DNA from: an uncultured Candidatus Saccharibacteria bacterium
GTDB lineage: Bacteria; Patescibacteriota; CAZHWT01
NCBI GenBank assembly: GCA_964554805.1
Contig: CAZKPX010000005.1
Location: 15,935 to 79,934 of the forward strand
DNA: 64,000 nt
Direction: 5' to 3'
Made by a program: the position numbers and the translations under genes. Positions 3,801 to 31,594 of the stretch are shown one piece after another (positions within the stretch are counted from its first letter, which is position 1; every line of letters starts with the position of its first letter). The notes under the pieces are model-generated. The model made no database searches. It saw nothing but the letters and a program-made list of their open reading frames with translations, and had not been told where the DNA came from.

Positions 3801-4030
3801 ACATCGCCCCTTTGCACAGCTTCCATATGTAATTCTTCAAATTCTTCAATCCAAGTGTCTAGTAGTTGGGAGATTGCAGCTTTTTGTTCAGTTAAAAACA
3901 TTTCTTCAGACGATTCAGCCTCTTTCTCGGCAGGAAAAAACTGAGGCAACTCTATTGTAATATTCTCAATAAGATTATCATTATTGTGATACATATGTAT
4001 CAATAGTAGCATATATGTATCACATGTCAA
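3749..4030 (-). CDS. small acidic hypothetical protein upstream of the recombinase (possible excision or directionality factor?)
   Basis: 93-aa ORF that is Glu-rich and overlaps the recombinase start. No recognisable motif. Confidence 0.2.
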   Translation of the reverse strand: MTCDTYMLLLIHMYHNNDNLIENITIELPQFFPAEKEAESSEEMFLTEQKAAISQLLDTWIEEFEELHMEAVQRGDVCQRHESNELVEKQSSI

Positions 4031-4146
4031 CTACTTAATTGAGTGTGGCTTGTTAGGCTGGGTAGCTATTTTAACGGAGTCTCCACCAGATGGTACCGCG
4101 TATGGCTACAATAATTCACGAAGAAATTTAGAGTGTCGTCCGCACA

Positions 4147-4944
4147 CTATTTGCGCTTAGCCTCTGTGTTGAGTTTATTGTTCAAATTTTTAATAGAGGC
4201 TCCAACTCTTTCTTTATCTTGACGATTGACTGGCATGTAGTAAAGGTACTGTGCTGACAGCATGGACATTTGATATAGGATTATTGCCTCAGCAATCTGT
4301 GCTTGATGAGTGCTATAATCTGCTCTATCTCTATAATTGCTCGTAAAGACTTTATCCATATGGCCTATTGTTACTAATGGTGACAAGTGATTTCTTAGAC
4401 TGGTCATTCGATAGAAGTTTTTTAAAGAATGAAATTCTTCTTCATCAATCCACGCGCTTTTCTCTAAAGACTCTAGCATTTGATCTACACTTCTATCAGC
4501 CCAGTCATTTCTAGTTTCATTTTTGTCGTTTCCGCGCTTGATATATTTCTTCTTGTTCTTGTAGTAATTATTTCGTACAGAACTTAATTCATCTTTATTG
4601 ATCTTATGTCCAATCTGAAGACGATATTTATACTCCTTCTGCCTTTCTATGTGTCTAAACTGCATGAACCTTTTTAATCGCTGCTTGGTGTCTTCGGCAT
4701 AAATATAGTTTATTCCAATCACGTTCTCTATTATGCTTCGAGCTATATCCATTGCCTGGTCGCCATAGTCATCAAGTATTAATATATCGATAGCTAATGT
4801 CGATTCATAGCACCTCACATAGTTCGCATAGAAGATTTCTTGAAATTTATTTCTTGGATACTCAAATTCCAATTCTAGAATTTCTTTAATAATTTTTATT
4901 AAATCACCGTAGTAATCATGTTGATCTGAGGATTCAGTATTCAT
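4147..4944 (-). CDS. hypothetical protein (Lys-rich central segment)
   Basis: 265-aa ORF lying between the recombinase and the T4SS genes. No motif recognised. Confidence 0.4.
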   Translation of the reverse strand: MNTESSDQHDYYGDLIKIIKEILELEFEYPRNKFQEIFYANYVRCYESTLAIDILILDDYGDQAMDIARSIIENVIGINYIYAEDTKQRLKRFMQFRHIERQKEYKYRLQIGHKINKDELSSVRNNYYKNKKKYIKRGNDKNETRNDWADRSVDQMLESLEKSAWIDEEEFHSLKNFYRMTSLRNHLSPLVTIGHMDKVFTSNYRDRADYSTHQAQIAEAIILYQMSMLSAQYLYYMPVNRQDKERVGASIKNLNNKLNTEAKRK

Positions 4945-7703: not shown

Positions 7704-9430
7704 TCCAAGACCTTCTTGAGCAAGTTAGTTTGAAAGTGAAAGCTAGTCCTCATAAAACTGTTCGTGCGCTGCCGACGCCTAAACTTACATCACCGCTCGT
7801 TAAAGCAATTCTGCCAGCTGGAATTGCCGAACAACCTCGACATATAGATACGGGTAGTAGAGTAAGTCGGACTCTGTACATCTCGCAATATCCGCATATT
7901 GCTCATACTGGCTGGCTTAATCCATTGCTGCAATTTAATGCAGATATGGACATCTCCTTTCATATTGCGCCCTCGGCTCCCGATCAAGCGATTCACCAAT
8001 TAACCCGCAAGATAACTGAAATGGAGTCTACCAGGCGAAGCATGGTCAGACGCGGTCAGATTGTCGGTAGCGAGTTAACTGATCCGCTGGAATCAGCTAT
8101 GAGTCTTAAGACGAATATGCTGCGGGGCAAAGAAAAGTTGTTTGGTATTGGATTGTATATCACGCTTCACGCGGACACTTTGGAAGAATTAGACAGAACA
8201 ACTAGGCTTCTTGAAGGCACTCTTGGGAGAGGCCTGTTTTATTCAAAGTCGGCAGATTTTAGGCAGTTGGCTGGGTTTAAAACAACGCTGCCTATGGCCA
8301 AGGATTTACTGCTCAATCCTCACGACTTTGATTCGCTTGGGGCTTCAACGACATTCCCCTTCGCATCGAGCGAAGTTATAGATCCCGATGGTGTACTGTA
8401 CGGAATTAATGAGGCTAGTAATTCACTGGTTATTATTGACCGCTTTGCCTTGCCGAATGCTAATGCCATTACCATTGCTCAATCAGGGGCTGGTAAAAGC
8501 TACACTTCAAAAGTAGAGATACTCAGACAGTTGCTCTTTGGTACCCAAGTCTTTGTTATCGATCCAGAAGATGAGTACCAAGAGTTGGCAAAGAATGTTG
8601 GGGGTCAGATGATTGTTATTACTCCAACATCAGGTCAAAGCATTAACCCTTTTGCGCTACCCCTTGAGGCAACAAAACAGGAGCGAGCGCAACACATTGA
8701 AGACTGTATAAGTCTTTTATCTGTCATGGCAGGCAGTATGAATGTCGAGGAGCGATCTCGGGTTGATGGAGTGCTATCTAGGCTATTTATGGGTGGTAAA
8801 CAGGTGGTGCAGCTTAGCCATGTTGTAAAAGCACTGGTCAAAGAACGTCAGCTGGAATCACTGGTAAGCAGATTGGAGCCATATAGTACTGGCTCACTTA
8901 AAGGATTGTTCACTAGCAATAAGTCGCTGAGTTTAGAGACTCCGCTTTCAGTCTTTAGCTTAAAACATGTACCCAATACCTTAAAGCCGGTAGTGACTAT
9001 GATGATCGCCACTGCTCTGCAGCGGCAGATTATGGGACAGAAGAAAAAGCGATTGCTGCTTATTGATGAGGGTTGGTTGCTGCTTGAACATGAGGATTCG
9101 GCTAAGTTTATTGCGGGTCTTACCAGACGAGCTAGAAAGTATTACCTAGGCGTCCATATGATTACCCAGCAAGTTCAAGATTTTTTGGATAATCCGCATG
9201 GTCGATCAATTGCCTCACAATCGGCGCTACGAATCCTACTTAAGCAAGACACTACAACAATTGATCAAGTAGCTAAGGCGTTTAGACTAAGCGGATATGA
9301 AAAAGAAACGATTTTAACTTCTGACAAAGGCGAAGCCTTGATTATTGCAGGATCAAAGCATGTCAAAGTCAAAATTGTAGCCTCAAGTAAAGAGCATCCG
9401 CTACTTACAACTGACCCTCAGGAATTATGA
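7700..9430 (+). CDS. VirB4/TrbE-family T4SS ATPase (ATPase domain)
   Basis: Walker A IAQSGAGKSYTSK and Walker B LLLIDEGW; 576 aa. Confidence 0.75.
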   Translation: MIQDLLEQVSLKVKASPHKTVRALPTPKLTSPLVKAILPAGIAEQPRHIDTGSRVSRTLYISQYPHIAHTGWLNPLLQFNADMDISFHIAPSAPDQAIHQLTRKITEMESTRRSMVRRGQIVGSELTDPLESAMSLKTNMLRGKEKLFGIGLYITLHADTLEELDRTTRLLEGTLGRGLFYSKSADFRQLAGFKTTLPMAKDLLLNPHDFDSLGASTTFPFASSEVIDPDGVLYGINEASNSLVIIDRFALPNANAITIAQSGAGKSYTSKVEILRQLLFGTQVFVIDPEDEYQELAKNVGGQMIVITPTSGQSINPFALPLEATKQERAQHIEDCISLLSVMAGSMNVEERSRVDGVLSRLFMGGKQVVQLSHVVKALVKERQLESLVSRLEPYSTGSLKGLFTSNKSLSLETPLSVFSLKHVPNTLKPVVTMMIATALQRQIMGQKKKRLLLIDEGWLLLEHEDSAKFIAGLTRRARKYYLGVHMITQQVQDFLDNPHGRSIASQSALRILLKQDTTTIDQVAKAFRLSGYEKETILTSDKGEALIIAGSKHVKVKIVASSKEHPLLTTDPQEL

Positions 9431-10050
9431 ACCCAGCACTATTCTTGCTATTTACCAATGATAAAGCCTTGCGCTGGTGCTTAATGGCAGCAGTCATGAT
9501 TGCTTTAGTGCCGATGATGATTGTGTTGACTATAACTCAGGTCGGTGCGCAAGCAATTTCCGATGTACTACTACCACATGGAGAGAATACAAACCCAACC
9601 TCGATTCCAACAATATACGGTTTGATTGAGCTAGAAAATCCAGCGATTTGGCCAGTCGGTGGAGTTATTACACAGGAGTTCGGGACGCCCAACTTTCCAT
9701 TTCAAGTTGCACATACTGGCATCGATATTGCTAATCCCAATGGAGCTGCAGGAGACCCTGTTCGGGCAATCTTGCCTGGCAAGATTGTGTTTGCTGGCGA
9801 AGACTTCATAAGTCGCAATCTAGAGGTGCATGTTGATCATGGCCAAGGCTTGGTTAGTGTGTATGCACACTTATCCAAGATAACAGCCATTAAAGGGCAA
9901 GAGGTGCTGCAAGGTCAAAAGGTGGGCGAGGAAGGAAGATCTGGTTGGGCAACAGGAGTGCATTTGCACTTAGAACTCAGATTGTTTCATATACCAGTGA
10001 ACCCCAGAGTTTTAATCGGACAAGGTTCGCCGCCATTGGAGCTACCATGA
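9427..10050 (+). CDS. M23/LytM-family peptidoglycan metallopeptidase, membrane-anchored
   Basis: N-terminal TM helix, then HTGIDIA...GLVSVYAHL...GVHLHLELR, which corresponds to the HxxxD and HxH zinc motifs of M23 peptidases. ATGA coupling on both sides. Confidence 0.7.
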   Translation: MNPALFLLFTNDKALRWCLMAAVMIALVPMMIVLTITQVGAQAISDVLLPHGENTNPTSIPTIYGLIELENPAIWPVGGVITQEFGTPNFPFQVAHTGIDIANPNGAAGDPVRAILPGKIVFAGEDFISRNLEVHVDHGQGLVSVYAHLSKITAIKGQEVLQGQKVGEEGRSGWATGVHLHLELRLFHIPVNPRVLIGQGSPPLELP

Positions 10051-12440
10051 TAAGGCCGATTACGACGCAAGAGCTATATAGTATGGTGGATTCTTTTGAA
10101 CAGATAGCTTGGGAAGGGTGGTTGGTAGGGGCAGTGATTGCACTTTTGCTTGCAGTATTATTGCTAGCAGTCTATCAGGGGTGGGTTGTGTATTTAAATA
10201 GAGATAAGTCGGTCATTGTATTCACTCCAGCTTTAATGGATACAAATAATTACGAGCGTATGGAAGAGTTCTTTAGCTTTATTGATGCGCTACTCAGGCC
10301 AAAGACTATACTTGGCAAGCTCCAGCCTTCACGGCAAATTACACTTGAAATCACAACGTCCTATGATACTGGTCTTCGCTACCAGCTATTCACCCCTCCT
10401 CATTTATCAGCGCCGATTGTTCAAGGAATAAAAAGCATATTCCCAGGCTCTAAGGTGCAGCCTGTGGCTAGCAGTGATCAAAATAGTATTGATGGAGTTG
10501 TGAGGCACTTTAAGTTAAAAAACCATCCTGCGCTACCACTGCGGTTCGTGACTGCAGAGCATGTAGCTGACCCCTCAAGCTTTGTCGCCAGTAGTCTGTC
10601 TGAGTTATCAGACAAAGAGCAGGCAGTGATTCAGGTTGTTTTATCCCCCACCAGAGGATTGAGCCATGTATTGCTGCACCGGGTAAACCCTGATTCATTT
10701 GGCAAGCTGGCGGGATTGGCGGAGCAAAAGTTGCGACAGCCAATATTCAAGACAACACTTCGGATCAAAACTTCCGAAGCAAGGCTGCACGCCGTCACTT
10801 CGGCGTTGTATGGCGTTAATCAACCCAAGGTGCAACAACTTGTCACGGCTCACTTATGGCCATTGCAGCGCTCACTTGTGGAATGGAGTCTTGCTAACTG
10901 TACGCAACTATTCTCACCTAGTCTGAAATTATCTGTTGGAGAACTAGCTAGTTTATTGCACCCTGCGACTGGCAGAGTTGCAAAGACTGAAGATGTATCA
11001 ACAAACAAGAGTAAGCTATTGCCGCTTCCTACAGAGCTAAAAACAAGAACTGCAGATAGCGGAGTAATTATTGGGTCTGCCATAGGCAGCTCAAGTAATT
11101 ACCCGATCATCGTCACCGATGATGATCGTTCACGGCATATGTATTTGATTGGTCAAACAGGTTCAGGCAAGTCTACAATTCTATTTCATATGGCAACAAA
11201 GGATATACTAGACGGCTACGGAGTAGCTGTCATTGATCCGCATGGTGATTTAATCGATGACATCGTCAGCGATTTAGTCGCAAACGTTGGCCGAGAAAGG
11301 GCGAATGAGGCAACTCAAAGAGTTGTGCTCATTGACCCCTCCGACCTGCACTTTCCAGTGGGGATTAACTTGCTGGAGATACCGCAAACATCTAGCGAAG
11401 AAGAGTTAGAGCAAGAAAGGGAACTGGTTTGCGAGGGTGTAATATCGGTGTTTAAGCGTGTCTTTGGGCAAGATGAAGATTCGAATGCGCACCGAATTGA
11501 ATATATGTTGCGCAATGTCATTCATACTGCGTTCCATGTTGAGAGTGCCACCATATTTACGTTATATGACTTGCTCAACGATACGAAGTATCGCAAGCAA
11601 GTGGTTAAAACTCTAACTGATCCAAACCTCATCAACTTTTGGAAGAATGAATTTCACAAAGCTGGCGACTGGCAGCAAGTGAAAATGGTGTCAGGTGTTA
11701 CCGCAAAGATTGGACGATTCCTCTTCTCTCCAACAGTTAAGAGAATTCTTGATCAGCCAAAATCAACCATTGATTTTGATGAGTGTTTAGCAACGAACAA
11801 AGTTCTTCTATGCAATCTTTCTGAAGGAAAGATTGGTGAGGATAATGCACACCTCATGGGTAGTGTAATTATTACTAAGATTCATCTTGCCGCCCTAAGG
11901 CGGTCAAGACTGAACAAGGATTCTAGAAGTCCCTATTATTTATACGTTGATGAGTTTCAGCATTTCGCTACAAACTATTTCACAAGGCTTCTATCAGGGG
12001 GTAGAAAGTTTGGCTTGCGCGTCATAATTGCGCAGCAATCGACCGCGCAGATTAAAGACAAAAATATGCTGCAGGTTATTCTAGCTAATACTGGGACTGT
12101 GGTGTCATTTAGAACAGCCAGCTCGTTTGACGCTGACATGGTATTGCCATTGTTTGAACCAATGGTGACGAGGGAAGATATTGTAAACCTGCCACGATAT
12201 AACTTCTTTATAAAGATGGGTGCTAGTGAGCCACTGCAAGCCTTCTCTGGGAGAACGAAGGCTATTGAAGTCACACAGGATGATAAGGCTATATTGCAGC
12301 TCCTAGAGTTATCTAGAGGGCAATATGCAGGTAAGCACCATCAGGCCACTAAGTCAACGACCATTCCAGCGAAGCCTAATGACAATAAGGATACAAAGCC
12401 AATGAAGAGCTTAGCGACTAAACTAAATGGCTCAACATAA
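10047..12440 (+). CDS. type IV coupling protein (VirD4/TraG/TcpA-like, FtsK-type ATPase)
   Basis: Two N-terminal TM helices; Walker A LIGQTGSGKST, VIDPHGDL and Walker B YLYVDEFQHF. The start was moved to ATG 10047, which overlaps the previous stop; the ORF-track start at 9945 overlaps the M23 gene. Confidence 0.7.
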   Translation: MIRPITTQELYSMVDSFEQIAWEGWLVGAVIALLLAVLLLAVYQGWVVYLNRDKSVIVFTPALMDTNNYERMEEFFSFIDALLRPKTILGKLQPSRQITLEITTSYDTGLRYQLFTPPHLSAPIVQGIKSIFPGSKVQPVASSDQNSIDGVVRHFKLKNHPALPLRFVTAEHVADPSSFVASSLSELSDKEQAVIQVVLSPTRGLSHVLLHRVNPDSFGKLAGLAEQKLRQPIFKTTLRIKTSEARLHAVTSALYGVNQPKVQQLVTAHLWPLQRSLVEWSLANCTQLFSPSLKLSVGELASLLHPATGRVAKTEDVSTNKSKLLPLPTELKTRTADSGVIIGSAIGSSSNYPIIVTDDDRSRHMYLIGQTGSGKSTILFHMATKDILDGYGVAVIDPHGDLIDDIVSDLVANVGRERANEATQRVVLIDPSDLHFPVGINLLEIPQTSSEEELEQERELVCEGVISVFKRVFGQDEDSNAHRIEYMLRNVIHTAFHVESATIFTLYDLLNDTKYRKQVVKTLTDPNLINFWKNEFHKAGDWQQVKMVSGVTAKIGRFLFSPTVKRILDQPKSTIDFDECLATNKVLLCNLSEGKIGEDNAHLMGSVIITKIHLAALRRSRLNKDSRSPYYLYVDEFQHFATNYFTRLLSGGRKFGLRVIIAQQSTAQIKDKNMLQVILANTGTVVSFRTASSFDADMVLPLFEPMVTREDIVNLPRYNFFIKMGASEPLQAFSGRTKAIEVTQDDKAILQLLELSRGQYAGKHHQATKSTTIPAKPNDNKDTKPMKSLATKLNGST

Positions 12441-12530
12441 TAGTAAAGATAGTCATAACGGTTATGACTATCTTTACTCATTCTACTTCAGATATACCAA
12501 TCATATTCCTACCCCTTTATATACATACTT

Positions 12531-13250
12531 ATGCAAAGCGAAATAATCCTACTCAAACAACTCTATATTTTTCGCTACCTTACACAAAAACAGTTCTGCA
12601 CAATTTTGGGGCTTAGTGGAAACGCTCATATAAGCCGCTCCCTACAATCATTAGAGTCTAAGGGATTAGTGGTTAATTATAAATCTAAGTCAATTATAGA
12701 GCCGACCGTTTATGGATTATCCGGTTCAGCAGCTAAGGTTATTAAATTAAACGCAAGCGAATTAGGCATAGATCTTCCGCTTGCCCGGAGTGTTACCAAT
12801 CTTCGTCTAACTAGTAGTGCATTCAAACAACATTGTATGGAAGTTGCTGATATTTTTTGCCAGCTACGAAGTAGCGCAAAAGATGAGGGTAAATCTTTCT
12901 CATGGCTAAGCAAGACTCAGCTCTATGGATTTGAGCCGCTACCGAAGCCGGCTCCTGATGCTTTGATGATGCTAGGTGAGAAGAATACAAAACAATACTT
13001 CTTCATTGAAGTATTGCAGGAGGGTATGTTGAGAAAACCGCTCTATATAAGATTGAGGCAGTACTATGACTTTTGGAAAGGTGGAGATTGGGAGGCAGAC
13101 ATAGAATCAGATTGTCCAAAGCTAATGATTATTACTCAGTCTGAGAGGCAGGTGTGGCAAGTTAAAAAACTGCTTGAGGTAATTGATGAAGATTTTGCTA
13201 AAGAATGTATAATGCAAACAATTATCGAAGGGGAATATCTACAAGATTAA
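12531..13250 (+). CDS. winged-helix protein, possibly replication-relaxation (Replic_Relax)-like relaxosome accessory protein
   Basis: N-terminal wHTH-like pattern LLKQLYIFRYLTQKQF...LQSLESKGLV. It sits directly after the coupling protein gene. Confidence 0.3.
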   Translation: MQSEIILLKQLYIFRYLTQKQFCTILGLSGNAHISRSLQSLESKGLVVNYKSKSIIEPTVYGLSGSAAKVIKLNASELGIDLPLARSVTNLRLTSSAFKQHCMEVADIFCQLRSSAKDEGKSFSWLSKTQLYGFEPLPKPAPDALMMLGEKNTKQYFFIEVLQEGMLRKPLYIRLRQYYDFWKGGDWEADIESDCPKLMIITQSERQVWQVKKLLEVIDEDFAKECIMQTIIEGEYLQD

Positions 13251-15799: not shown

Positions 15800-18700
15800 A
15801 TGGCCAAAATAGACGACTCACTACTACAAGGAATCATTACTGGCAGGGTTGAGCCACACATATACTCTTTCGAAACAAATACACTACCTAATTATTTAAA
15901 GGTTGGCGACACCTATCGTCCAGTTGACGAGAGGTTGAATGAATGGAGAAAGTACTATAAGGATCTAACCGAAGTCTCAAGGCACAAGGCGATTGCCGCC
16001 GAAGGAGTGTTCTTTAGAGATTATTCTGTGCATAAGCACCTTCGCTCGAAAGGTAAGGTGCAGGCCAACTTTGACCCAGTAAGTAATTTTTACTCTGCTG
16101 AATTTTTCTCAGACACCAAAAAGACTGACGTGGAGCAGGCAGTCGAGCAAATCGTAAAAAGTTACCCCGAATCTAGTATTTACGATTACTACCACAATCT
16201 CAAAGATAGAATTGAATATCGGTTTACCAGAAATAAAGACTTTGCTCCACGAGATAATCAGCAGGAAGTTATTAATAGATTCAAAGAAGCCGTCAATGCA
16301 GGCCGTGCCAACTTGTTGATGTATGCCGTTATGCGGTTTGGCAAGTCTATTACTTCAATATGGGCAGCAAAACAAATCGATTCAAAGCTAACTGTAGTGG
16401 TTTCTGCCAAGGCTGATGTGCGACTTGAATGGAAGCAGACCGTTGAAAGCCATAAGGACTTTGCCGGGTATCGGTTCATGGATAGTGAAGATTTGCGGCA
16501 AAGCCCGGATATTGAGCAACTATATGGTCAAACCTTTAAAGCTGGATCTGAGACAGAAGAAGTGTGCACCAATATTGTGCTCTTTTTAACCTTGCAAGAT
16601 TTAGCTGGATCAACTGCCGCAATTAAGAAACGGCATGAATTCTTGCAAGAAGCTAATGTAGACTTACTGATTATTGATGAAACTCATTTTGGAGCTAGGG
16701 CACAAGTTCTAGGTAAAATTTTGGCAGGCACTGAAATCAGCGATGTTGATAAAGAAATGCTGAGTACGATGGAAGACCAAGATGACATCGGTAAGCCAAA
16801 AGAGCTAAAAGCAATAAATGCCAAGGTGAAATTACATTTATCAGGTACACCCTATCGAATCTTGATGGGTAGTGAGTTTGAACCTGAGGATATTATCGCC
16901 TTTGTGCAATTTAGTGATATCTATGAAGCAAAATTAAAATGGGCTACGGACAATCTAGAAACTGATGAATGGCATAATCCCTACTATGGCTTCCCCCAGA
17001 TGGTTCGATTCGCCTTTAATCCTAATGAGAGCTCGAGGAAGCTGCTTGATGGGATACCTGGCAGCAAGCCATCGGACTTACTTGCTCCCATTTCAACCAG
17101 CAGCAGTAATCCAAACTACGAGACTTTTCAACATGAGCAGGAGGTTCTAGAGCTTTTTGGAGCGCTAGATGGCTCACTAAGTGATACACAGCTACTTGGT
17201 GTTTTGGATAGCCCAATTATTAAGAATGGCAAACTAGCACGTCATATTGTAATCGTTTTACCCTTTAGGGCATCATGCGATGCGCTAGAAAAGCTGCTTG
17301 TCTCAAATAAGGATGAGTTTCGGAATATCGCCGAGTATAGGCTGTTTAATATCAGTGGGCACAACAAGGAGCTCTCGACTCCTGAGGAAGTTAAGGCTGC
17401 TATCTCCAACGCTGAGGCAGATGGAGATAAGACTATTACTCTGACTGTTAATAAGATGCTGACCGGCAGCACCGTACCTCAATGGGATACAATGATTTAC
17501 CTGAAAGGCACGGCAAGCCCTCAAGAGTACGATCAAGCCGTATTCCGCTTACAATCTCCCTGGGTTGAAGTGTATGAGGATGGTGAAGGTAATCGCATTG
17601 CCTATGATATGAAGCCTCAGACACTCCTCGTTGACCTTGACCCAACCCGCCTATTTTCCCTGCAGGAAGCCAAAGCCTTTACTTACGGTGCCAATGCAGG
17701 ACAGATTGGTAATGAACAAATTGAGTCTTTTATCGAGCGGGAACTAAAAATATCCCCAATTATTGCGGTCAATACTGAGAATAATAAGCTAGTTGAGATA
17801 AATGCCACTAATGTCATGGATCAAGTTCGAGATTACGCCGCTAGTCGGACTATTGTTGAAGATGTTGGCGATGTTGGTGTTGATTTAACCTTATTCGATA
17901 ATGAAGAGATTCTGGCTATGATCAGCTCTCTGTCAGAGATGGGTGGAAGGAATGGTCTGAACATTAGGCCTGCTGAAGATGAGGGGCAAGAGCTTGATAT
18001 CACGGAAGAGGTCGATGATCATGCTTCTGGCGATGATCCGACACTAGATCCTACTACTACGGGTACGCCTGCTCCTACTAGCGATTCTGAAACTGCGGCT
18101 AGCAATAGCAGTCTGGAGAAGAAATTCCGCTCATACTATGCCCAGATTCTTCTTTACGCTTTCCTAACTGACACCGAGGTGAAGAATTTATCTAGTGTAA
18201 TTGCAAGCATTGAGGCTAATGATGATAATCGTAGAATTGCCAAAAACCTTGGCCTGAGAGCCAGTGATTTACAGTTAATCAGAGACAATGTTAATTGGTC
18301 AGTACTGCGGAGTTTGGACTACAAAATTCAAAATACTGATTATAGGGCAATTGATGAGAGTATTTCTCCAGAAGAGCATATTGAGATTGCCATAAGTAAA
18401 TTTGGACGTCTGTCTGAATCAGAAATATTTACCCCCGCTATAATTGCCAATAAGATATTTGAAGGTTTTGATTCTGATTTTTGGGATAGTCTGAATTCAG
18501 AGATAGTTCTTGATATGGCAAGCAAGTCTGGTAGTTTTGCCCATGCATTCGTCCTGGTAGCAGAAGAAAATGGCGCGTCGAGAGTAGATTTGCGAGATAG
18601 GTTTTACTCAATACCCACTTCTCCAGCTGCATACGAATTTACTCTTAAAATGTACAAAGCAATTGGTTTAAACTCTCATAATATTGCTCAACACTTTAAT

Positions 18701-19870
18701 TCCTACGACCTGCTTAAACTATCTGCAGATGATGTCAATTTTCTTTTAACTCAAGATAAGAACTTTGATGATATAAAACTATCAGATCTTGAGAACCGGA
18801 ATCGTGATAGTATTAAGGGTAATAATGCAGGAGTAAATCAAGTGAGATTCAAAGCAATAGTTGGCAATCCTCCATACCAAGAGAATATCAAGAATCGAGG
18901 CGATCAACCGCCTATATACCACCACTTTCTAGAGACTGCCTACAATCTTTCAGATATTGTGTCAATGATCCACCCTGCAAGGTTCTTGTTTAATGCAGGG
19001 TTGACCCCTAGGGACTGGAATCAAAAGATGCTTAACGACAAGCATCTTAAGGTAGCATACTTTGAACAGAAATCAATGAATGTGTTCCCCAATACTGACA
19101 TTAAAGGTGGGATTGCTATTACACTTCGCGATACGAGTAAAGATTTTGGCGCAATTAAGGTATTCACTAGCTTGCCTGAGCTTAACTCTATATTGAATAA
19201 AGTCGAGCCTCAAACAATTGATACTCTAGATAAACATATAACTGGGCGCGGTGTTTATCGCCTTACAGAAGATGCACTGCGAGATCACCCGGAAATAGAA
19301 AGACTCCAATCTGTAGGCCACAAGACTGATGTTGGCTCTGGAGCTCTTAGAGTCTTAAAGGGTATTGTTCTATTTGAAAATAAACCGATTGATGAAAACG
19401 AGTATGTGCAAGTTATTGGGTTATTAGACAATCGTCGAGTTTACTATTGGATTGACCAAAGGTACTTGAGTCAGCCAAAGAACTTCAAGAAATATAAGAT
19501 TATTGTACCTAAGGCAAATGGGTCCGGGGCAATTGGTGAAATTCTAAGCACACCCCTAATCGGGGAGCCCCTAATCGGGTACACGGAGACTTTCATTGGA
19601 ATTGGTGAATTTAGTGCTGAAGTTGAAGCTAGGGCAGCGTTGAAGTATGTAAAATCAAAATTTGCACGAACGTTGCTGGGCGTACTAAAGATTACTCAAG
19701 ATAACCCGCGAGGCAAATGGGCAAAAGTTCCCTACCAAGACTTCACCAGCGCATCTGATATCGATTGGACTAGATCGGTAGCCGAGATCGATCGGCAGCT
19801 TTATGCTAAATATAACTTAAGCCCACAAGAAATTGAGTTTATTGAAGCTCGTGTTAAGGCTATGGAGTAG
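15800..19870 (+). CDS. SNF2/DEAD-like helicase fused to gamma-class N6-adenine DNA methyltransferase (Eco57I/N6_Mtase-like)
   Basis: Helicase motifs MRFGKS (I), LLIIDETHFGAR (II, DExH) and LSGTPYR (III). An acidic linker follows. MTase motif I is LDMASKSGSFAHAF and motif IV is IVGNPPYQE; about 250 aa follow the MTase core and may form a TRD. 1356 aa. Confidence 0.75.
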   Translation: MAKIDDSLLQGIITGRVEPHIYSFETNTLPNYLKVGDTYRPVDERLNEWRKYYKDLTEVSRHKAIAAEGVFFRDYSVHKHLRSKGKVQANFDPVSNFYSAEFFSDTKKTDVEQAVEQIVKSYPESSIYDYYHNLKDRIEYRFTRNKDFAPRDNQQEVINRFKEAVNAGRANLLMYAVMRFGKSITSIWAAKQIDSKLTVVVSAKADVRLEWKQTVESHKDFAGYRFMDSEDLRQSPDIEQLYGQTFKAGSETEEVCTNIVLFLTLQDLAGSTAAIKKRHEFLQEANVDLLIIDETHFGARAQVLGKILAGTEISDVDKEMLSTMEDQDDIGKPKELKAINAKVKLHLSGTPYRILMGSEFEPEDIIAFVQFSDIYEAKLKWATDNLETDEWHNPYYGFPQMVRFAFNPNESSRKLLDGIPGSKPSDLLAPISTSSSNPNYETFQHEQEVLELFGALDGSLSDTQLLGVLDSPIIKNGKLARHIVIVLPFRASCDALEKLLVSNKDEFRNIAEYRLFNISGHNKELSTPEEVKAAISNAEADGDKTITLTVNKMLTGSTVPQWDTMIYLKGTASPQEYDQAVFRLQSPWVEVYEDGEGNRIAYDMKPQTLLVDLDPTRLFSLQEAKAFTYGANAGQIGNEQIESFIERELKISPIIAVNTENNKLVEINATNVMDQVRDYAASRTIVEDVGDVGVDLTLFDNEEILAMISSLSEMGGRNGLNIRPAEDEGQELDITEEVDDHASGDDPTLDPTTTGTPAPTSDSETAASNSSLEKKFRSYYAQILLYAFLTDTEVKNLSSVIASIEANDDNRRIAKNLGLRASDLQLIRDNVNWSVLRSLDYKIQNTDYRAIDESISPEEHIEIAISKFGRLSESEIFTPAIIANKIFEGFDSDFWDSLNSEIVLDMASKSGSFAHAFVLVAEENGASRVDLRDRFYSIPTSPAAYEFTLKMYKAIGLNSHNIAQHFNSYDLLKLSADDVNFLLTQDKNFDDIKLSDLENRNRDSIKGNNAGVNQVRFKAIVGNPPYQENIKNRGDQPPIYHHFLETAYNLSDIVSMIHPARFLFNAGLTPRDWNQKMLNDKHLKVAYFEQKSMNVFPNTDIKGGIAITLRDTSKDFGAIKVFTSLPELNSILNKVEPQTIDTLDKHITGRGVYRLTEDALRDHPEIERLQSVGHKTDVGSGALRVLKGIVLFENKPIDENEYVQVIGLLDNRRVYYWIDQRYLSQPKNFKKYKIIVPKANGSGAIGEILSTPLIGEPLIGYTETFIGIGEFSAEVEARAALKYVKSKFARTLLGVLKITQDNPRGKWAKVPYQDFTSASDIDWTRSVAEIDRQLYAKYNLSPQEIEFIEARVKAME

Positions 19871-19875
19871 CGGTT

Positions 19876-21534
19876 ATGGCTACGGTAAATGGTGTTGATA
19901 TTCTTGAAAACAAGCTCAGGCGTAAAGGTTGCCTACTAGATGCGCTTCTTCTCGACCAATCCACTAAAAGAAACTTGATTTGGGGTACCGACTCGTATAT
20001 GCATTTAGGAGAAAAATATTTACCTGAAGCACAGATTCTTCCAGGACTAGTGACTGGTAAGAATGGGCTTTTAATCCAACCTAGGGCAGCAAAGAGTATT
20101 GTTGAGCAAAAACAGCGAACAAAGGATAAGGCAGAGGTTTTTACTCCTTTACATGTCGTTGACCAGATTAATGCACTCACAGATACCATTGAAGTAGATA
20201 GCGAAAATTGGCAGGACTATGTTAAGGAATTGAGGCTTGAGATTGCCTGTGGTGAAGCGCCATTCATTGTTAGTCGGTATGACCCCACCTTGCCGGCTGG
20301 GGGTACGGTTAAAATTAATCAAAGAGTCGGCTTCTTAGATAAAAAACTAATGGCAGTGTCTAGATTCTGCAATAAGCGAGCCGAATGGCTACATTGGGCT
20401 ATGGAGGCTTTTAAATCTAGCTATGGATTTGAATGGCAAGGAGACAACGTATTAATTGCGCGAGAAAACTTATTATATACACTCCTCGATTATTACTATG
20501 AAAAATTTGGCCATAGGCTTCGACTGTCTGCTCAACAAGAGTTTGCGGAAGTGATCAGCTGGAACATCTTTCAGATGGATGGATTGAAATTTGTTACGCC
20601 TATGAGCTGTCAAACTGAGATGACTGCTGAGCAAGGAGCCATCACATTATTCGATGATGAGCCCGACGCTGTTCGAGAGGCTAAATGCGAGGGGTGCAGA
20701 TTGGACATTCAAGAAAAACATAATGGGGTGTATGCTAAAGTAATGGATTGGGAGCAAGAGAAATCTAGGCGATTTATTGATCTGCTTTCTTATAAGAATC
20801 TGCTCCTATCTCCAGTCAAAACAAATGCACTGGGGCGACTAAAAGAGAGCAGCATGATTGCAAGGAATGCAAGTGAAGAAAAAATTTATAAGTTACTTCT
20901 AGAAATTGGCTACACTGCAGATATGATTCAAGAACCTGACAAGGTTAATGACCTGAATCCAGAAAAAGCTGTAGACTATGTATTGCCTGAAATCGCCATA
21001 GAGGTTAAAGAAATATACAACCCAGATATAATGTCTGACGCCGAGAGGATGAAGAGCGATTTTGACCGAGATGGCTACTCAGTCTTTGTGGCTCCAAATA
21101 TCAGTCAGAGCATTAAAACTCATCTCGACTCTACCGTTAAGAAGCTAAAGAATTTTCCAGATGTTCAATCATTGCTAATCATAGACATATCCCAGTTGGT
21201 ATATCCTCCGGATATTGAAGCGGTAGTTCTAGGATCGGAAGCTATAGAAGGTTATTTGTCCGATGCGGATGGCGAGCGCAAGTTTGTTGAGACCGATCGT
21301 GGCTGGCTGGGTAAGCTTTTTCAAGAAAAGCAATATACTAGTATTGGAGCAATAGCCTTCTTGTCAAATATTAAATTCTCGGTGTTCCACAATCTTAGTG
21401 CCAAGAAGGAAAGAAAATTATCCATCCATCGCTTATGCGATATTGCAAACATAAAGTCACTCTCAGTAGAGCAATTTGCTTTCTACAATATCAATCGGGG
21501 CCCGAGCGCTATAAGGAAAATAGAAGTTAGCTAA
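19876..21534 (+). CDS. hypothetical protein, partner of the helicase-MTase; possible PD-(D/E)xK-like nuclease segment
   Basis: Starts 6 nt after the stop of the MTase fusion. The segment AVDYVLPEIAIEVKEIY looks like a D...ExK (or Vsr/DUF559-like) core. No other motif recognised. Confidence 0.35.
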   Translation: MATVNGVDILENKLRRKGCLLDALLLDQSTKRNLIWGTDSYMHLGEKYLPEAQILPGLVTGKNGLLIQPRAAKSIVEQKQRTKDKAEVFTPLHVVDQINALTDTIEVDSENWQDYVKELRLEIACGEAPFIVSRYDPTLPAGGTVKINQRVGFLDKKLMAVSRFCNKRAEWLHWAMEAFKSSYGFEWQGDNVLIARENLLYTLLDYYYEKFGHRLRLSAQQEFAEVISWNIFQMDGLKFVTPMSCQTEMTAEQGAITLFDDEPDAVREAKCEGCRLDIQEKHNGVYAKVMDWEQEKSRRFIDLLSYKNLLLSPVKTNALGRLKESSMIARNASEEKIYKLLLEIGYTADMIQEPDKVNDLNPEKAVDYVLPEIAIEVKEIYNPDIMSDAERMKSDFDRDGYSVFVAPNISQSIKTHLDSTVKKLKNFPDVQSLLIIDISQLVYPPDIEAVVLGSEAIEGYLSDADGERKFVETDRGWLGKLFQEKQYTSIGAIAFLSNIKFSVFHNLSAKKERKLSIHRLCDIANIKSLSVEQFAFYNINRGPSAIRKIEVS

Positions 21535-21555: not shown

Positions 21556-22146
21556 ATGGAAGATCTTGAAAAGTATATTAATGTTAAAGACCTAGTTACT
21601 AACTTAGTGTTTTGGGGGATTGTAGGTGTTACAGGTATACTTGCTACTCTACATAGAAAGCTTATCTGGGATAAAGTTAAACCTTTTATAAATATAAAGG
21701 TATCTTTTAGAAAAAAGCCTGAACTCCCAAAAGTAATTTTTACCAAAGATAGTATAAAAATTCTGTTTGTTGACGACCAAGAGATGCCAATTGTTGAGAA
21801 TTTAGATTCAGCAGGTTGGGATGTAAGATTAATAAAAGATATTACAGATCTAAAATCAGATGAAATTATTAATAGGCAAATAATCTTCGTTGACTATGAT
21901 GGTGTAGGCAGAAAGTTTTCAGAAGAGCACCAAGGAGTGGAGCTCATAAAAATACTGAAAGATGAATATAAGGAAACTAAATTCGTTGTGCTTTACACTT
22001 CTATGGCAAACCTACCCACAGATACAACTTTTACAACATCCTTTGATTTAGCAGATGATAAAATGAGAAAAAATGCAAATACTTCTGAGTTTATCGATAA
22101 GATCAATAAGGCTATTAAAAAGCTCAACGGTAATGAAGAAGAATGA
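21556..22146 (+). CDS. membrane-anchored receiver-domain-only protein (CheY-like REC with N-terminal TM helix)
   Basis: TM helix VFWGIVGVTGILATL. Then KILFVDDQ (acidic pocket), IIFVDYDG (candidate phospho-Asp) and VVLYTS (conserved Thr/Ser). No output domain. Confidence 0.45.
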   Translation: MEDLEKYINVKDLVTNLVFWGIVGVTGILATLHRKLIWDKVKPFINIKVSFRKKPELPKVIFTKDSIKILFVDDQEMPIVENLDSAGWDVRLIKDITDLKSDEIINRQIIFVDYDGVGRKFSEEHQGVELIKILKDEYKETKFVVLYTSMANLPTDTTFTTSFDLADDKMRKNANTSEFIDKINKAIKKLNGNEEE

Positions 22147-23147
22147 TTTATTTTGAAATAGTAGACAAAAATGGATATGTCATAGCCGGAAACGTGGATG
22201 AGTTTAGTCAAGTATCTAGCTTTAGAGAGAATAAGATTCAGTCCACGCATGTTAATGGAGTTGGCGTAAAATCTACATTTGTTAAAAAAGAAAACTATAG
22301 CTTATGGCTAATATTAGAAAATGAAAAGGATTATCTAAGAAGTTCGAGAAGGTTAAAACTACTTACAGATACCTATTTAATAGTAGCTGAAAGCATGTGG
22401 CAGCAACAAAAGAAATTACTGGATATCCATGCTCATTCATTAAGAACGATATCTGGACGTATGCAGCAAAAGCTGGAAGGCTTCTCAATGCCTGAGCGAT
22501 ACCAAGCCGCAAACTATAAAGACTCTGTAGCAAAACTGATTAATATTGTCAAAAGCCAGCCAAATAAAGCAGGAGAGCTTATATTCTATCAGAGTAAACG
22601 TATCGTAGACTTGCAAATGCATTTATTATCTATTGATATAATTCAAGAAAGTCCATTTTTACAAATTGACTTCCAGCTTGTAGATTTAAGCAAGAGTTTG
22701 TTAAATTTTTATACCCCATTCTCGGATAGATTTCATGAGGTTGATGTAATTGTTAATTTCGACTCAAGTCTTGAGACAAGAGTTAAGGTTGACAGAAAAA
22801 TGTTTAATCTTGCAATACATAATATTATTGACAATGCAGCAAAATACTCAATGCCTGGTTCGAAAATTTACATTACCCTAGACAGGGAAAGTAAGAGACT
22901 GCTCTTTAAAATGCAGAGTCTTCGTATAGACAAGGATGAAAGAAGCTTAGTATTTGATGATGGTTATAGAGGACATCACACAAATGCTAAATTCATGGGA
23001 TCTGGTCATGGGATGTATATGACAAAGAGGGCGCTATCTAAAATGGATATGACTATTTCAGTGGAGGTTAATTACGAGAATTGCACACCTTATGAAAATG
23101 ACCAATACACTGAAAATACAATAGTTATTTCTGGGCTAAAACAGTAA
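22143..23147 (+). CDS. soluble histidine kinase (HisKA + HATPase_c) with a short N-terminal domain
   Basis: H-box LDIHAHSLRTISGRM, N-box IHNIIDNAAKYS, G1 VFDDGYRGH, G2 GSGHGMYMTKRAL. No TM helix. The start overlaps the upstream stop (ATGA). Confidence 0.65.
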   Translation: MIYFEIVDKNGYVIAGNVDEFSQVSSFRENKIQSTHVNGVGVKSTFVKKENYSLWLILENEKDYLRSSRRLKLLTDTYLIVAESMWQQQKKLLDIHAHSLRTISGRMQQKLEGFSMPERYQAANYKDSVAKLINIVKSQPNKAGELIFYQSKRIVDLQMHLLSIDIIQESPFLQIDFQLVDLSKSLLNFYTPFSDRFHEVDVIVNFDSSLETRVKVDRKMFNLAIHNIIDNAAKYSMPGSKIYITLDRESKRLLFKMQSLRIDKDERSLVFDDGYRGHHTNAKFMGSGHGMYMTKRALSKMDMTISVEVNYENCTPYENDQYTENTIVISGLKQ

Positions 23148-23189: not shown

Positions 23190-24392
23190 CTAGAGTGCAT
23201 GAGTACTCATCTTGTCTCCAGAAAAGTATTCCGGAATTAGGGGGTTGTATCTAAACCACATATACATTGCTTGTTCTACGAGATCTAAATCTATTTCACC
23301 GCTAACCTTGAATAATTTATATCGGATACCCACCCTTTCATCTACATCGCCATTATTGTCGATTAGCTGATAAATTTCGTCGTAATCTTCTCTAGAGAAC
23401 ACCCTAACTGCAGCATCAAAGTGTTCAAATTTCCCTATATTTTGATCATAAACCAGATGTGCATAGCGCTGTATCGCATACTCATTCCCTATTCCTGGAG
23501 CCAGCTTTCTCTGAGTAGAACCATAGTAGTTCACTTCACTTAGGCAGTATTCCTCAATTGATATAGACCTTAATCCCGCCCGCTTATCCATCATCTTCGT
23601 TCTAAATATTGTGTACTTAATCGGATAAGTAAGATCATCTTGAGGATTATGATGCAATGTTCTTTCTGCCAAGAACCTATCATTCAACAAATCTTGGTTG
23701 AACTTTGGGCCATACCAATGATCTAGCTCAATGATTTCTTGATACCACTTTTTATCAGATACTCTAGTGGGATCTATTCTGACCTCTACCTCATGTCCTT
23801 TATTCAATGCATTTTGAAGTGGTACATGAATTCCTGCGAAGTTGCCTGAGAAACATCTTCGTAGGAAAGGATGCAAGAATAGGAGCTTTGAATCATCAAG
23901 TATTAATCCTTGAGGCAAAAGATCTATCCTCGCTAGACTAAGCGAAATTAGCCCGTTGTTGTGCTGTATATTAAGAGATTCTAAGAGCTCATGATTATTA
24001 ACTTGTGCTACATGATCATCAATCTTAGGTCTTGAGATCTCCATAATGTTATAAATTGCCTGCAATGCAAATATTTGCATTGATTCATCTTCAGGCTTAT
24101 CTCTTGCTAGAAACCTTGCATGGCTCACCCAATTATCTCCAGGCGGGCAATCGTTGATTAACTCCTGTGCATTTCGTTCAGCTAATTTTTTTAGTAATCT
24201 ATCTGCTAGCTCCTTCGCTGGAGTGCTTAAGTCGCTAGGCGAGGTGGAATTCAGAGCTATATGCAAGTCTCTTTTATTGTCAGAATTACGATCAATTAAT
24301 ACTTTATACACCTTTTCTCCAAGACTCATTGTATCTTGGTCAAAAAGGATATTGTTTAGTGCTTTTAGTGAGTCAGACATTCTAGTTATCAT
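23190..24392 (-). CDS. hypothetical protein (400 aa), convergent with the two-component pair
   Basis: Long ORF with no recognised motif. Coding looks coherent, with no internal stops and a balanced composition. Confidence 0.45.
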   Translation of the reverse strand: MITRMSDSLKALNNILFDQDTMSLGEKVYKVLIDRNSDNKRDLHIALNSTSPSDLSTPAKELADRLLKKLAERNAQELINDCPPGDNWVSHARFLARDKPEDESMQIFALQAIYNIMEISRPKIDDHVAQVNNHELLESLNIQHNNGLISLSLARIDLLPQGLILDDSKLLFLHPFLRRCFSGNFAGIHVPLQNALNKGHEVEVRIDPTRVSDKKWYQEIIELDHWYGPKFNQDLLNDRFLAERTLHHNPQDDLTYPIKYTIFRTKMMDKRAGLRSISIEEYCLSEVNYYGSTQRKLAPGIGNEYAIQRYAHLVYDQNIGKFEHFDAAVRVFSREDYDEIYQLIDNNGDVDERVGIRYKLFKVSGEIDLDLVEQAMYMWFRYNPLIPEYFSGDKMSTHAL

Positions 24393-26672: not shown

Positions 26673-26715
26673 GTTGCTTCCGGGGAGTCTCACCGCGACA
26701 AAGTCGTCAGGTTCG

Positions 26716-26811
26716 TAGGTAGGAAGAGATTATTGAAACAGCGATTTCAATAATCGGTACTACCGTTACGGATCCGCCAGCCGGCGGAGAAGTTCCCCCT
26801 AGGCATCACCA
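26716..26811 (+). repeat. ~95-nt structured repeat unit ending in a tRNA-Glu 3-prime-like core (CCCCCTAGGCATCACCA); candidate right-end att repeat of island 1
   Basis: About 85% identical to 2093-2183. It carries the same two hairpins and is preceded by a tRNA-like TCAGGTTCG. Confidence 0.5.
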
Positions 26812-27068: not shown

Positions 27069-28217
27069 ATGAATATAGCTCTAGGCTCTACTTCAAATTA
27101 TAAATATGAAATCTTAAAACACAAGCTATATGGGAACTTAGCTACTAGTGAAATAACCCGTGTTTTTATTGCAGATAAATCTGTAGATCTTGTGTTTAAT
27201 AAGGATACCTCTGAGCTGGCTACGAAACATGTAAAGCAGGTGCTAGACGCTCAGCCAGATACTGATCTGGCTGTAGTGCTGGAAGCGGGGCTAGAGCTAG
27301 TTGGTAAGATGTATATGCTTGTATGCGTAGCTGCCTTCTGGGACGGCAAGACGCTTTCAATAGGTAAAAGTAAAGGTATACCTTTACCATTTGTGGTGTC
27401 TGAGAGCGTTAAACAGGGTAGCAAATATGAACAAGAAATCACTAAATTCCAGAAAATAGCACTTGCCGATGAAAAAGATAGAATAAAAGAGCTTATTACT
27501 ATGGAGAGCTCATACAATACAGCTATAGAAAACGCATTGCCCGTCTTAAAGAGCTTGTATGGTAATTCGCTGATTGCAAAAGCACTAGTCTCATCGTCTC
27601 CGTATTGGATTAGTAAGGTATCTCTGAAACTAACTTCATTGCTGGCCTTTGTTTATATTACCTATGGTTCTTTTGTGACGCTTGGTTCAGGAGTGCGCTC
27701 AGATTTTGCATTTCAGTTAAAAAATTTGCAAATACTACTTCCCGCTATATTGCTCTTATGGCTAATTGGAGTTATATCGTCATTTAAAATACCAAGCCTG
27801 CAAGCCAACTCGGTAATCTGGAAAAGTTTTCAAATAGTTTTAACAGCCGCAATTCTTCAGCTTGTATTTGGAATTCTGTTTCTTTGGTTTTATTGGCAGT
27901 ATGATACTAATTCAGTGATCGACCATTTGTTGAAACTTTGGCTGGACAACTGGCTTATCATGGGGATAGTGGCTGTTTTGATTTGTGTCGCAGCAGTAGG
28001 ATACTTCTGCTTCAAGCTATGGAAGAATAGGGTTATCTCGCTAATTACTGCGATGAGTCTTATAGTTGGATGGGCTTTACTCCTGCTTAATATCTGGACT
28101 CTTATGTACGCTAGACTTCCCGTGCTTCTCATTACCCCCTTTGCTATATTTGGTCTTTCATTATGCTTCGGCACATGGAGTTTTTCAAAAGCTGTTGAAT
28201 CTAAATTTGTTAAATAG
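27069..28217 (+). CDS. membrane protein (N-terminal ~190-aa soluble domain, then 6-7 TM helices)
   Basis: 382-aa ORF with a hydrophobic C-terminal half. Confidence 0.45.
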   Translation: MNIALGSTSNYKYEILKHKLYGNLATSEITRVFIADKSVDLVFNKDTSELATKHVKQVLDAQPDTDLAVVLEAGLELVGKMYMLVCVAAFWDGKTLSIGKSKGIPLPFVVSESVKQGSKYEQEITKFQKIALADEKDRIKELITMESSYNTAIENALPVLKSLYGNSLIAKALVSSSPYWISKVSLKLTSLLAFVYITYGSFVTLGSGVRSDFAFQLKNLQILLPAILLLWLIGVISSFKIPSLQANSVIWKSFQIVLTAAILQLVFGILFLWFYWQYDTNSVIDHLLKLWLDNWLIMGIVAVLICVAAVGYFCFKLWKNRVISLITAMSLIVGWALLLLNIWTLMYARLPVLLITPFAIFGLSLCFGTWSFSKAVESKFVK

Positions 28218-31556: not shown

Positions 31557-31594
31557 TCCGCCAGCTGGCGAAGTAGCTACCCCTAGGCGTCACC
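31557..31594 (+). repeat. truncated copy of the att-like repeat (TCCGCCAGCTGGCG...ACCCCTAGGCGTCACC); candidate right boundary of island 2
   Basis: 16 of 17 positions match the 3-prime end of tRNA-Glu at 2276-2292. It has the palindromic core shared with units at 2150 and 26773. Confidence 0.45.

Follow-up and report, generated by a model that had tools for sequence, protein, structure and literature searches.

Analysis of a 64,000-nucleotide (nt) stretch of DNA from an uncultured Candidatus Saccharibacteria bacterium (assembly GCA_964554805.1, contig CAZKPX010000005.1, positions 15,935 to 79,934 of the forward strand) revealed an atypical two-component pair of adjacent genes at positions 21556-23147. 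This whole stretch is referred to below as the window, and position 1 is its first letter. The upstream gene of the pair, A, codes for a 196-amino acid (aa) receiver protein, and the downstream gene, B, for a 334-aa histidine kinase. The pair belongs to PDC-M43, a candidate defence family in PADLOC, and closes a Type IIG restriction-modification (R-M) operon carried by an integrative conjugative element (ICE). Our tentative interpretation, to which we give slightly less than an even chance, is that A-B is a self-contained cognate phosphotransfer pair serving as an R-M-linked abortive-infection or back-up module. The pair has the following features.

21556..22146, + strand: gene A, receiver-only protein of the PDC-M43A family (open reading frame (ORF) of 196 aa; PDC-M43A match 6e-27; AlphaFold2 pLDDT 90)
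21592..21651, + strand: transmembrane (TM) helix of A, residues 13-32 (Kyte-Doolittle (KD) value 1.79; modelled helix 10-41)
21745..22125, + strand: receiver (REC) of A, residues 64-190 (conservation, PDB profile matches, Foldseek)
21892-21894, + strand: phospho-acceptor D113 of A, invariant in the family alignment
22143..23147, + strand: gene B, soluble histidine kinase of the PDC-M43B family (ORF of 334 aa; PDC-M43B match 3e-29; HATPase_c 4e-10)
22143..22397, + strand: N-terminal domain of B, ~85 aa, presumed input, conserved in the B alignment
22398..22652, + strand: helical dimerisation/phosphotransfer-like region of B with the invariant His98 (22434-22436)
22710..23132, + strand: catalytic ATP-binding domain of B (N box N227/N231, G1 G274/G277, G2 G286/G288/G290)

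The only hydrophobic segment of A covers residues 13-32 (LVTNLVFWGIVGVTGILATL), where the KD mean over a 19-residue sliding window is 1.79. The N-terminus preceding this helix is acidic and the run following it is strongly basic; these charges predict a short N-terminus outside and a receiver in the cytoplasm. A has no output domain and nothing is located C-terminally of the receiver. The identity of the receiver needed proof because Pfam Response_reg gave no match to A even at E<1; an NCBIfam scan of A also gave no match. Relatives of A were collected by an exhaustive HMMER search against 1.84 billion representatives with a cut-off of E≤1e-3. The search returned 489 cluster representatives having residues ~60-190 of A in common, and the best of these are only 45-47% identical to A. 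In an alignment of 135 family members, from which all conservation of A was read, D113, G127 and K172 are invariant, and D73, D74 and a Ser or Thr at position 148 (Thr in the window copy) are at least 90% conserved. Together these residues form a receiver pocket with CheY-like spacing. Comparison of the family profile with PDB produced matches to receiver domains exclusively, with weak E-values (best 1.6e-4), and in these alignments the invariant Asp coincides with the phospho-acceptor. The AlphaFold2 model of A (pLDDT 90) consists of the helix 10-41, a linker and a (beta-alpha)5 fold. When this model was submitted to Foldseek, the top 50 matches were all receiver domains, with target-normalised TM-scores of 0.7-0.79 to single-domain receiver entries.

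By its profile matches, conserved residues and predicted structure, A is a genuine but divergent receiver domain. The description of A in the initial annotation, a 196-aa protein with one N-terminal TM helix and a receiver lacking any output, was confirmed, the receiver by family profile, AlphaFold2, Foldseek and conserved residues. Pfam finds a receiver in only 15 of the 135 aligned members, the other 120 being below detection, and thus the A family is a divergent, essentially unannotated receiver clade. The loop after the phospho-Asp has a form of its own, D-x-x-G-V-G. Single members of the family also gave weak matches to two phage holin families (Phage_holin_2_1, E = 0.0065; Phage_holin_2_3, E = 0.0069), which probably reflect the composition of the TM helix.

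Both genes of the pair lie on the + strand, with an overlap of 4 nt (ATGA, 22143-22146), as the initial annotation had placed them. B contains no predicted TM segment (KD maximum 0.79), which confirms that the kinase is soluble and has no membrane sensor. HATPase_c was matched in Pfam (4e-10), many sensor-kinase models were matched in NCBIfam over residues ~90-315, and the profile of the B family matched the class I kinases SrrB, VicK, WalK, PhoR and HK853 in PDB (best 7.5e-12). Among 13 aligned homologs there is no variation at His98, N231, G277, G286, G288 and G290, and N227 and G274 show conservation of at least 90%. The H-box of the window copy reads HAHSLRT. The stretch around His98 aligns with the SHELRT motif of SrrB, although this stretch alone is not significant. 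The small N-terminal domain noted earlier was also found, as a family-conserved region of ~85 aa, and no Pfam, NCBIfam or PDB match covers it. A single-sequence structure model of B had a pLDDT of only 37 and was unusable. Judged from its sequence, B is a class-I-type soluble histidine kinase with an atypical H-box, atypical because an acidic residue after the His is absent.

Scanning with PADLOC matched A to PDLC04646 (PDC-M43A, 6.3e-27) and to two further A models, and B to PDLC04647 (PDC-M43B, 3.2e-29) over residues 4-330. PDC-M43A models are matched by all 135 aligned relatives of A. By every criterion that could be tested, namely the profile of A, the profile of the adjacent B and embedding among defence genes, A-B is a member of PDC-M43. 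PDCs are genes found repeatedly within BREX, DISARM or Type I R-M systems and are listed by PADLOC as candidates on the basis of "guilt-by-embedding" (Payne et al. 2024, 10.1101/2024.01.29.577857). In the supplementary table of that preprint PDC-M43 appears as the two-family cassette CAS_00151, FAM_00604>>FAM_02649, with a count of 72; it is given by family identifiers only, as a candidate without experimental test, and the main text contains zero mentions of histidine kinase, receiver or two-component (10.1101/2024.01.29.577857). A search for "PDC-M43" in the searchable literature found no paper other than this source preprint, and a literature search for R-M-linked pairs of kinase and receiver found no characterised system. 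Inclusion of PDC-M43 in PADLOC was thus already known. The present analysis adds the identity of its domains: PDC-M43 is a histidine kinase together with a receiver-only protein that is usually membrane-anchored. It also adds a translational coupling inside Type I R-M operons in two layouts, the diversity of the anchors and the concentration in Patescibacteria of the closest relatives of the window pair.

Genomic context was analysed in 57 related loci (codes L0xx below), 17 from species-representative genomes and 40 from metagenomes. They were located using a 16-sequence alignment of A, the 135-sequence alignment being too diverse for scanning. The 17 genome loci are mainly from Patescibacteria metagenome-assembled genomes (MAGs), with some from Gammaproteobacteria. 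B is the gene after A in 13 of the 17 loci from genomes; in those from metagenomes this holds wherever the contig is long enough to show it. The two genes usually overlap by 1-8 nt. With this adjacency and 489 representatives, the pairing is far beyond chance. PDC-M43 was defined by two adjacent genes on the same strand, as in the window, and its R-M embedding was reproduced independently in the 57 loci.

Two layouts within Type I R-M operons were observed. In L010, L015/L049 and L046 the order is hsdM-A-B-hsdS (partial in L031 and L043), and the stop of B overlaps the start of hsdS by 4 nt in L010, L015, L031 and L049. In L019, L045, L047, L057 and L058 the order is hsdM-(x)-hsdS-A-B-hsdR, and in L019, L045, L047 and L058 the start of hsdR lies -4 to +2 nt from the stop of B. 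Other copies are preceded by a GmrSD/HNH nuclease (L020, L055), a C5 methylase (L024) or a PD-(D/E)XK nuclease (L018). A census of Pfam families was made for the 113 genes located within two genes of A-B in 44 dereplicated loci, with the following counts.

Methylase_S: 10 members
HSDR_N: 6 members
N6_Mtase, ResIII, DEAD: 5 members each
SWI2_SNF2, T1R_D3-like: 4 members each
YgjP-like, HsdM_N, Eco57I, T1RH-like_C: 3 members each
DpnI, DNA_methylase, GmrSD_N, NOV_C, AAA_21, HNH, T5orf172 (among others): 2 members each

No conjugation or metabolic family recurs among these neighbours. Counting conservative phmmer labels only, R-M genes account for 23 of 60 directly adjacent genes vs 3 of 190 genes at a distance of four genes or more (odds ratio 39, Fisher p = 1.9e-13). 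The survey of homolog neighbourhoods that had been proposed with the initial annotation thus revealed enrichment of R-M, and transporters and metabolic genes are not typical neighbours. Beyond A-B themselves the gene neighbourhood is not conserved among the loci, which points to a mobile cassette. A conserved gene of ~185 aa is located directly after hsdR in L019 (8446-9003), L045 (10659-11204) and L047 (12348-12917); it is probably the YgjP-like metallopeptidase counted three times among the neighbours. In L023, from a Gammaproteobacteria MAG (10082-12787), A is cut to 94 aa and B to 241 aa with two ORFs of 309 and 100 aa between them, and this locus looks like an insertion-disrupted, decayed pair.

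The membrane anchor of A was found in several formats. When 150 representatives of the A family were sorted, the classes were as follows.

N-terminal TM helix: 90 of 150 members (~60%)
receiver first, with a hydrophobic C-terminal tail: 10 of 150 members
short, without a TM helix: 36 of 150 members
other architecture: 14 of 150 members

In the class with an N-terminal helix the net charge averages -0.9 ahead of the helix and +2.4 behind it, and the charge behind the helix is the larger in 81 of the 90 members, in line with a positive-inside topology. A WxFSGxG motif is present within the TM helix of 23 of the 150 members. Members of the short class carry a conserved aromatic and basic N-terminal peptide (M-x-D-x-N-L...G-G-x-F-W...K-K), and the nearest relatives of window A (45-47% identity, Patescibacteria) belong to this class. 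It had been proposed that relatives resembling ordinary CheY-type receivers without a TM helix would speak against the original reading of A. The nearest relatives do indeed have no TM helix, yet with the aromatic N-terminal peptide they are not ordinary CheY proteins. Adjacency to R-M genes is seen for forms of A with and without TM helices alike. Since anchors recur in structurally different formats, location at the membrane is suggested to matter for function; an integral helix is not obligatory, since the class without one exists.

The closest relatives of A-B (L010-L026) come overwhelmingly from MAGs of Patescibacteria, the Candidate Phyla Radiation (CPR): Saccharibacteria, Kaiserbacteria, Gottesmanbacteria and Nomurabacteria. 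Copies were also identified on plasmids, where they are standalone cassettes in accessory regions. An E. coli homolog is carried by plasmid pZ1322MEC0001-2 (L027; A at 8770-9375, B at 9368-10432).

E. coli IncF plasmid: A-B flanked by IS3 and Tn3 transposases; NACHT and DUF3800 genes lie a few kb upstream
Shewanella plasmid: A-B beside higB and a diadenylate cyclase
Burkholderia plasmid: A-B after a DUF262 gene
Phaeobacter plasmid: A-B near type IV secretion system (T4SS) genes

On the Shewanella plasmid (L028, pSBAL11701 of Shewanella baltica OS117) a small gene for a diadenylate cyclase, together with a hypothetical gene that overlaps it, occupies positions 3476-4587, ~4 kb upstream of A-B and beside HigB. 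According to a 2026 preprint, minimal diadenylate cyclases have been co-opted for phage defence, and this stretch may be a small defence islet. PGAP labels A as "hypothetical protein" and B as "HAMP domain-containing histidine kinase". DNA-level searches of plasmids with the window region, and of complete E. coli genomes with the E. coli plasmid copy, found no match. A phage collection yielded weak matches to the generic catalytic domain only and no member of the A-B family, and no A-B relatives were found in viral contigs. Word-indexed homolog searches with A, B and the A-family alignment returned essentially no relatives. A single weak match of B (P0003) was discarded as an ordinary BceS-type kinase beside an OmpR-type regulator and an ABC/FtsX transporter.

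In the window, A-B is preceded by two R-M genes and followed by a convergent gene.

15800..19870, + strand: Type IIG restriction-methyltransferase, first gene of the operon (PADLOC REase_MTase_IIG 4e-281; Pfam T5orf172, ResIII helicase and Eco57I methylase)
19876..21534, + strand: 552-aa partner of the Type IIG enzyme (PADLOC MTase_II 5e-87, residues 109-304)
23190-24392, - strand: convergent 400-aa ORF, island cargo, 42 nt from the stop of B
2216-2292: tRNA-Glu at the ICE

The Type IIG gene is separated by a gap of 5 nt from the 552-aa gene, and the latter by 21 nt from A, which overlaps B by 4 nt. The 552-aa protein has no match in Pfam or NCBIfam. By eye, a C-terminal D...E-V-K motif (VDYVLPEIAIEVKEIY) was noticed that resembles a PD-(D/E)XK nuclease, and the protein probably represents a partner, as yet uncharacterised, of the Type IIG enzyme. 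The 400-aa ORF has no match in Pfam, PADLOC or NCBIfam. Both were rejected as components of the A-B system, since no homolog of either was found in the 57 related loci. The initial annotation correctly placed the pair in a mobile island, directly after an R-M gene pair and before cargo of no known match. The gene string is cargo of an ICE: the window contains a large serine recombinase, a T4SS pilin, VirB4-like and coupling ATPases, an M23 peptidase and a Replic_Relax relaxase. The 3' end of the tRNA-Glu (CCCCTAGGCGTCACC; 2277-2291) recurs as an exact 15-nt copy 29 kb downstream at 31580-31594; this copy is a plausible att-type island boundary and agrees with the low-GC region from ~3 to ~33 kb. 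Over A-B the GC content drops to 0.35. A direct repeat of ~80 nt, ~90% identical, was found at 2087-2165 and 26710-26790, and A-B is enclosed by either pair of boundaries. The PDC-M43 copy in the window therefore differs from the published cassette in its position, ending a Type IIG operon on an ICE and not lying inside a Type I operon, and in being at most 47% identical to any of the 1.84 billion representatives.

Several further observations were made on the island. Two hairpins are present in the ~80-nt repeat, a perfect one, GATTATTGAAA-N5-TTTCAATAATC, and another, CCGCC-N3/4-GGCGG. The left copy of the repeat (2050-2165 region) is located inside a decayed tRNA-Glu-like fragment, at the continuation of the T-loop (GGTTCG / insert / AATCC). 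An Rfam scan of this hairpin repeat at the island edge gave no match, and the repeat could mark a nested or tandem integration or a small structured element. Positions 27069-28217 (+ strand) code for a 382-aa cargo protein with an N-terminal NTPase_I-T (DUF84) domain, followed downstream by an ABC ATPase and then an FtsX-type permease. From the look of the translation, the C-terminal half of this protein is strongly hydrophobic, suggesting multiple TM segments. A promoter and terminator scan was at chance level, with 25 promoter-like sites vs 25.1 expected.

The following scheme is proposed, in which the transfer of phosphate from B to A is suggested by the conserved residues and the strict gene pairing. 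The N-terminal domain of B would receive an intracellular cue, most plausibly invasion by phage or foreign DNA or interference with restriction. B would then autophosphorylate at His98 and pass the phosphoryl group to Asp113 of A. Phospho-driven association of the receivers could alter the packing of the membrane segments of A, and this in turn might compromise the membrane or the growth of the infected cell. Membrane packing is proposed as the action of A because its only other feature is the membrane anchor, with no enzymatic or DNA-binding output. Either the phosphorylated or the dephosphorylated form of A could be the active one. A-B would thus provide an abortive-infection or back-up layer behind restriction, PrrC-like in its logic.

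Signalling of this kind has a precedent in Detocs (Rousset et al. 2023, 10.1101/2023.01.24.525353), in which His-Asp phosphotransfer drives abortive infection. Detocs consists of dtcA, dtcB and dtcC, all three being required for its detection. DtcA is a large, TPR-bearing kinase (phospho-His 645 in the type system), and DtcB is a separate buffering receiver; the system becomes toxic when the Asp of DtcB is removed. In DtcC the receiver is N-terminal and the effector (PNP, nuclease, TM or hydrolase) C-terminal; this effector is an ATP nucleosidase in 80% of systems, and TM effectors are a minority (10.1101/2023.01.24.525353). A-B resembles Detocs in its His-Asp architecture outside transcriptional control, a cytoplasmic kinase, a receiver protein without a DNA-binding domain and a context of defence genes. 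However, A-B has only two genes, with no second receiver in the window operon and none recurring in the 57 loci. B is a 334-aa protein with a conserved His98, without TPR and without any Pfam match N-terminal of the catalytic domain. In A the receiver is C-terminal (64-190) to a single TM helix, and there is no enzymatic effector. A-B was consequently rejected as a Detocs system, lacking the three genes, the TPR kinase and the protein with an N-terminal receiver and C-terminal effector. In a PADLOC scan at E≤1, A and B matched PDC-M43 models only, in a library where the presence of Detocs profiles is unconfirmed. The Detocs-like label of the initial annotation is not supported as a statement of membership; its view of the pair as atypical, mobile, defence-type cargo is supported by the context (PDC-M43, R-M and plasmid cassettes). 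Failure to belong to Detocs does not lower the claim that the pair may act through abortive infection gated by phosphotransfer.

A different parallel is provided by position, that of the anticodon nuclease PrrC in the EcoprrI Type IC R-M operon. The gene order of this prr operon is hsdM-hsdS-prrC-hsdR, and A-B occupies the corresponding place, hsdS-A-B-hsdR, in L019, L045, L047, L057 and L058. Nesting within Type I operons in general was found in L010, L015, L019, L045, L046, L047, L049, L057 and L058; the window copy follows a Type IIG enzyme instead. The prrC gene is described in a review as embedded in the prr operon and coding for a latent suicide effector, a second line of defence behind restriction. 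PrrC differs in being a single ABC-ATPase/nuclease protein kept latent by the R-M complex, from which an anti-restriction factor releases it. Neither an ABC-ATPase nor an anticodon-nuclease domain was detected in A or B with Pfam, PADLOC or NCBIfam, and A-B also occurs standalone and beside unrelated types of R-M. With canonical two-component systems (HK853-RR468, PhoR-PhoB) the pair shares the N, G1 and G2 boxes, a conserved His in a helical region, a full receiver pocket and adjacent overlapping genes. It differs from them in that the anchor sits on the receiver and not on the kinase, that A has no output domain and a receiver below Pfam detection, that the H-box of B has neither a post-His acidic residue nor a HisKA match, and that the phospho-Asp of the A family is followed by the DxxGVG loop.

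Association with R-M could also be explained if A-B were an accessory regulator tuning the neighbouring restriction enzyme, either delaying it in a new host or alleviating restriction after DNA damage, with phospho-A binding an R-M subunit. The strong enrichment of R-M adjacency agrees with this, as does translational coupling in R-M operons, by which expression of hsdS or hsdR follows translation of B. In addition, A-B travels on elements that need R-M to be established in naive hosts, and receiver-only proteins commonly act by binding partner proteins, as CheY binds FliM. However, the R-M partners belong to unrelated classes (Type I, Type IIG, GmrSD/HNH, C5 methylase, DpnI-like), many copies are standalone with no R-M gene nearby, and a membrane-tethered A is hard to square with control of a DNA-bound enzyme. 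We consider regulation of R-M unlikely. An addiction or stabilisation module was also considered, in which B keeps A in a harmless phospho-state and loss of the element or of ATP frees the toxic form. A-B is present on an ICE and on conjugative plasmids, beside HigB, HigA and ParD toxin-antitoxin genes and transposons; its tight overlapping two-gene layout is typical of toxin-antitoxin pairs; and Detocs provides a precedent for gating of toxicity by phospho-state. Against this, A and B are both of ordinary predicted stability, giving no sign of a labile partner, and the majority of loci lie within R-M operons on chromosomal MAG contigs, not on plasmids. In our opinion addiction is decidedly improbable, but it overlaps mechanistically with abortive infection and is not truly exclusive of it.

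Ordinary signalling often makes use of receiver-only proteins and soluble kinases, and the pair could simply be a hitch-hiking environmental sensor, phosphate sink or regulator of conjugative transfer. The location of the window pair on an ICE and that of the L013 pair, the one locus where A-B adjoins murG and cell-wall genes, would fit such a role. The recurring neighbours, however, are R-M and defence genes and not transporters, metabolic or T4SS genes, the unconserved wider neighbourhood points to a mobile cassette, and the A family is so divergent as to be missed by receiver annotation at the level of Pfam. Regulation of transfer genes, which the initial annotation had offered as an alternative, finds no counterpart among the recurrent neighbours, where conjugation families are absent. 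Ordinary signalling of any of these kinds appears very unlikely.

A number of results weigh against an R-M-linked abortive-infection or back-up module. R-M genes are directly adjacent in just 15 of 41 dereplicated loci, as counted with conservative labels. The partners are unrelated (Type I, Type IIG, Type IV-like and C5 methylase), which speaks against a direct physical recognition of any one R-M complex. Roughly a quarter of the sampled A family, the closest relatives of the window copy included, has no TM helix; for this reason one TM helix cannot serve as the effector in all members, unless the aromatic and basic peptide binds membranes as well. HisKA-type Pfam models do not match B, and in 42 homologs the His is followed by T, I, V, S, M, A or N and never by D or E. 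Of the clear H, N, G1 and G2 boxes reported initially, the last three are conserved and the H-box is atypical, and the chemistry of the kinase may differ from the canonical HisKA case. Finally, the searchable literature contains no experiment on PDC-M43, whose status in PADLOC is that of a candidate only.

A more specific mechanism can be envisaged, which we consider speculative and doubtful as a whole. In it, PDC-M43 would act as a minimal two-component immune switch whose effector is the anchor of the receiver-only protein itself. The soluble kinase would detect failed or inhibited restriction or another intracellular sign of invasion. Association of the receivers upon phosphorylation would then bring the anchors, whether helix, tail or aromatic peptide according to the subfamily, together in a membrane-disrupting oligomer. 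Such a switch would back up R-M, be coupled by translation to R-M operons and be especially common in Patescibacteria. If true, this would be a mechanism distinct from that of Detocs and the first reported of its type in CPR bacteria.

For annotation, the results mean that at least 489 sequence clusters of true receivers are largely invisible to Pfam and that their partner is mislabelled as a "HAMP domain-containing histidine kinase". If PDC-M43 functions in defence, it would be only the second known family with His-Asp phosphotransfer as an immune signal. At ~530 aa in total it would be much smaller than Detocs, and a membrane-tethered receiver would take the place of the enzyme effector. Coupling to Type I R-M makes the pair a tractable model for the wiring of second-line defences to restriction, following the PrrC paradigm, and its concentration in Patescibacteria draws attention to immune strategies in a host-dependent branch of bacteria that has been little studied.

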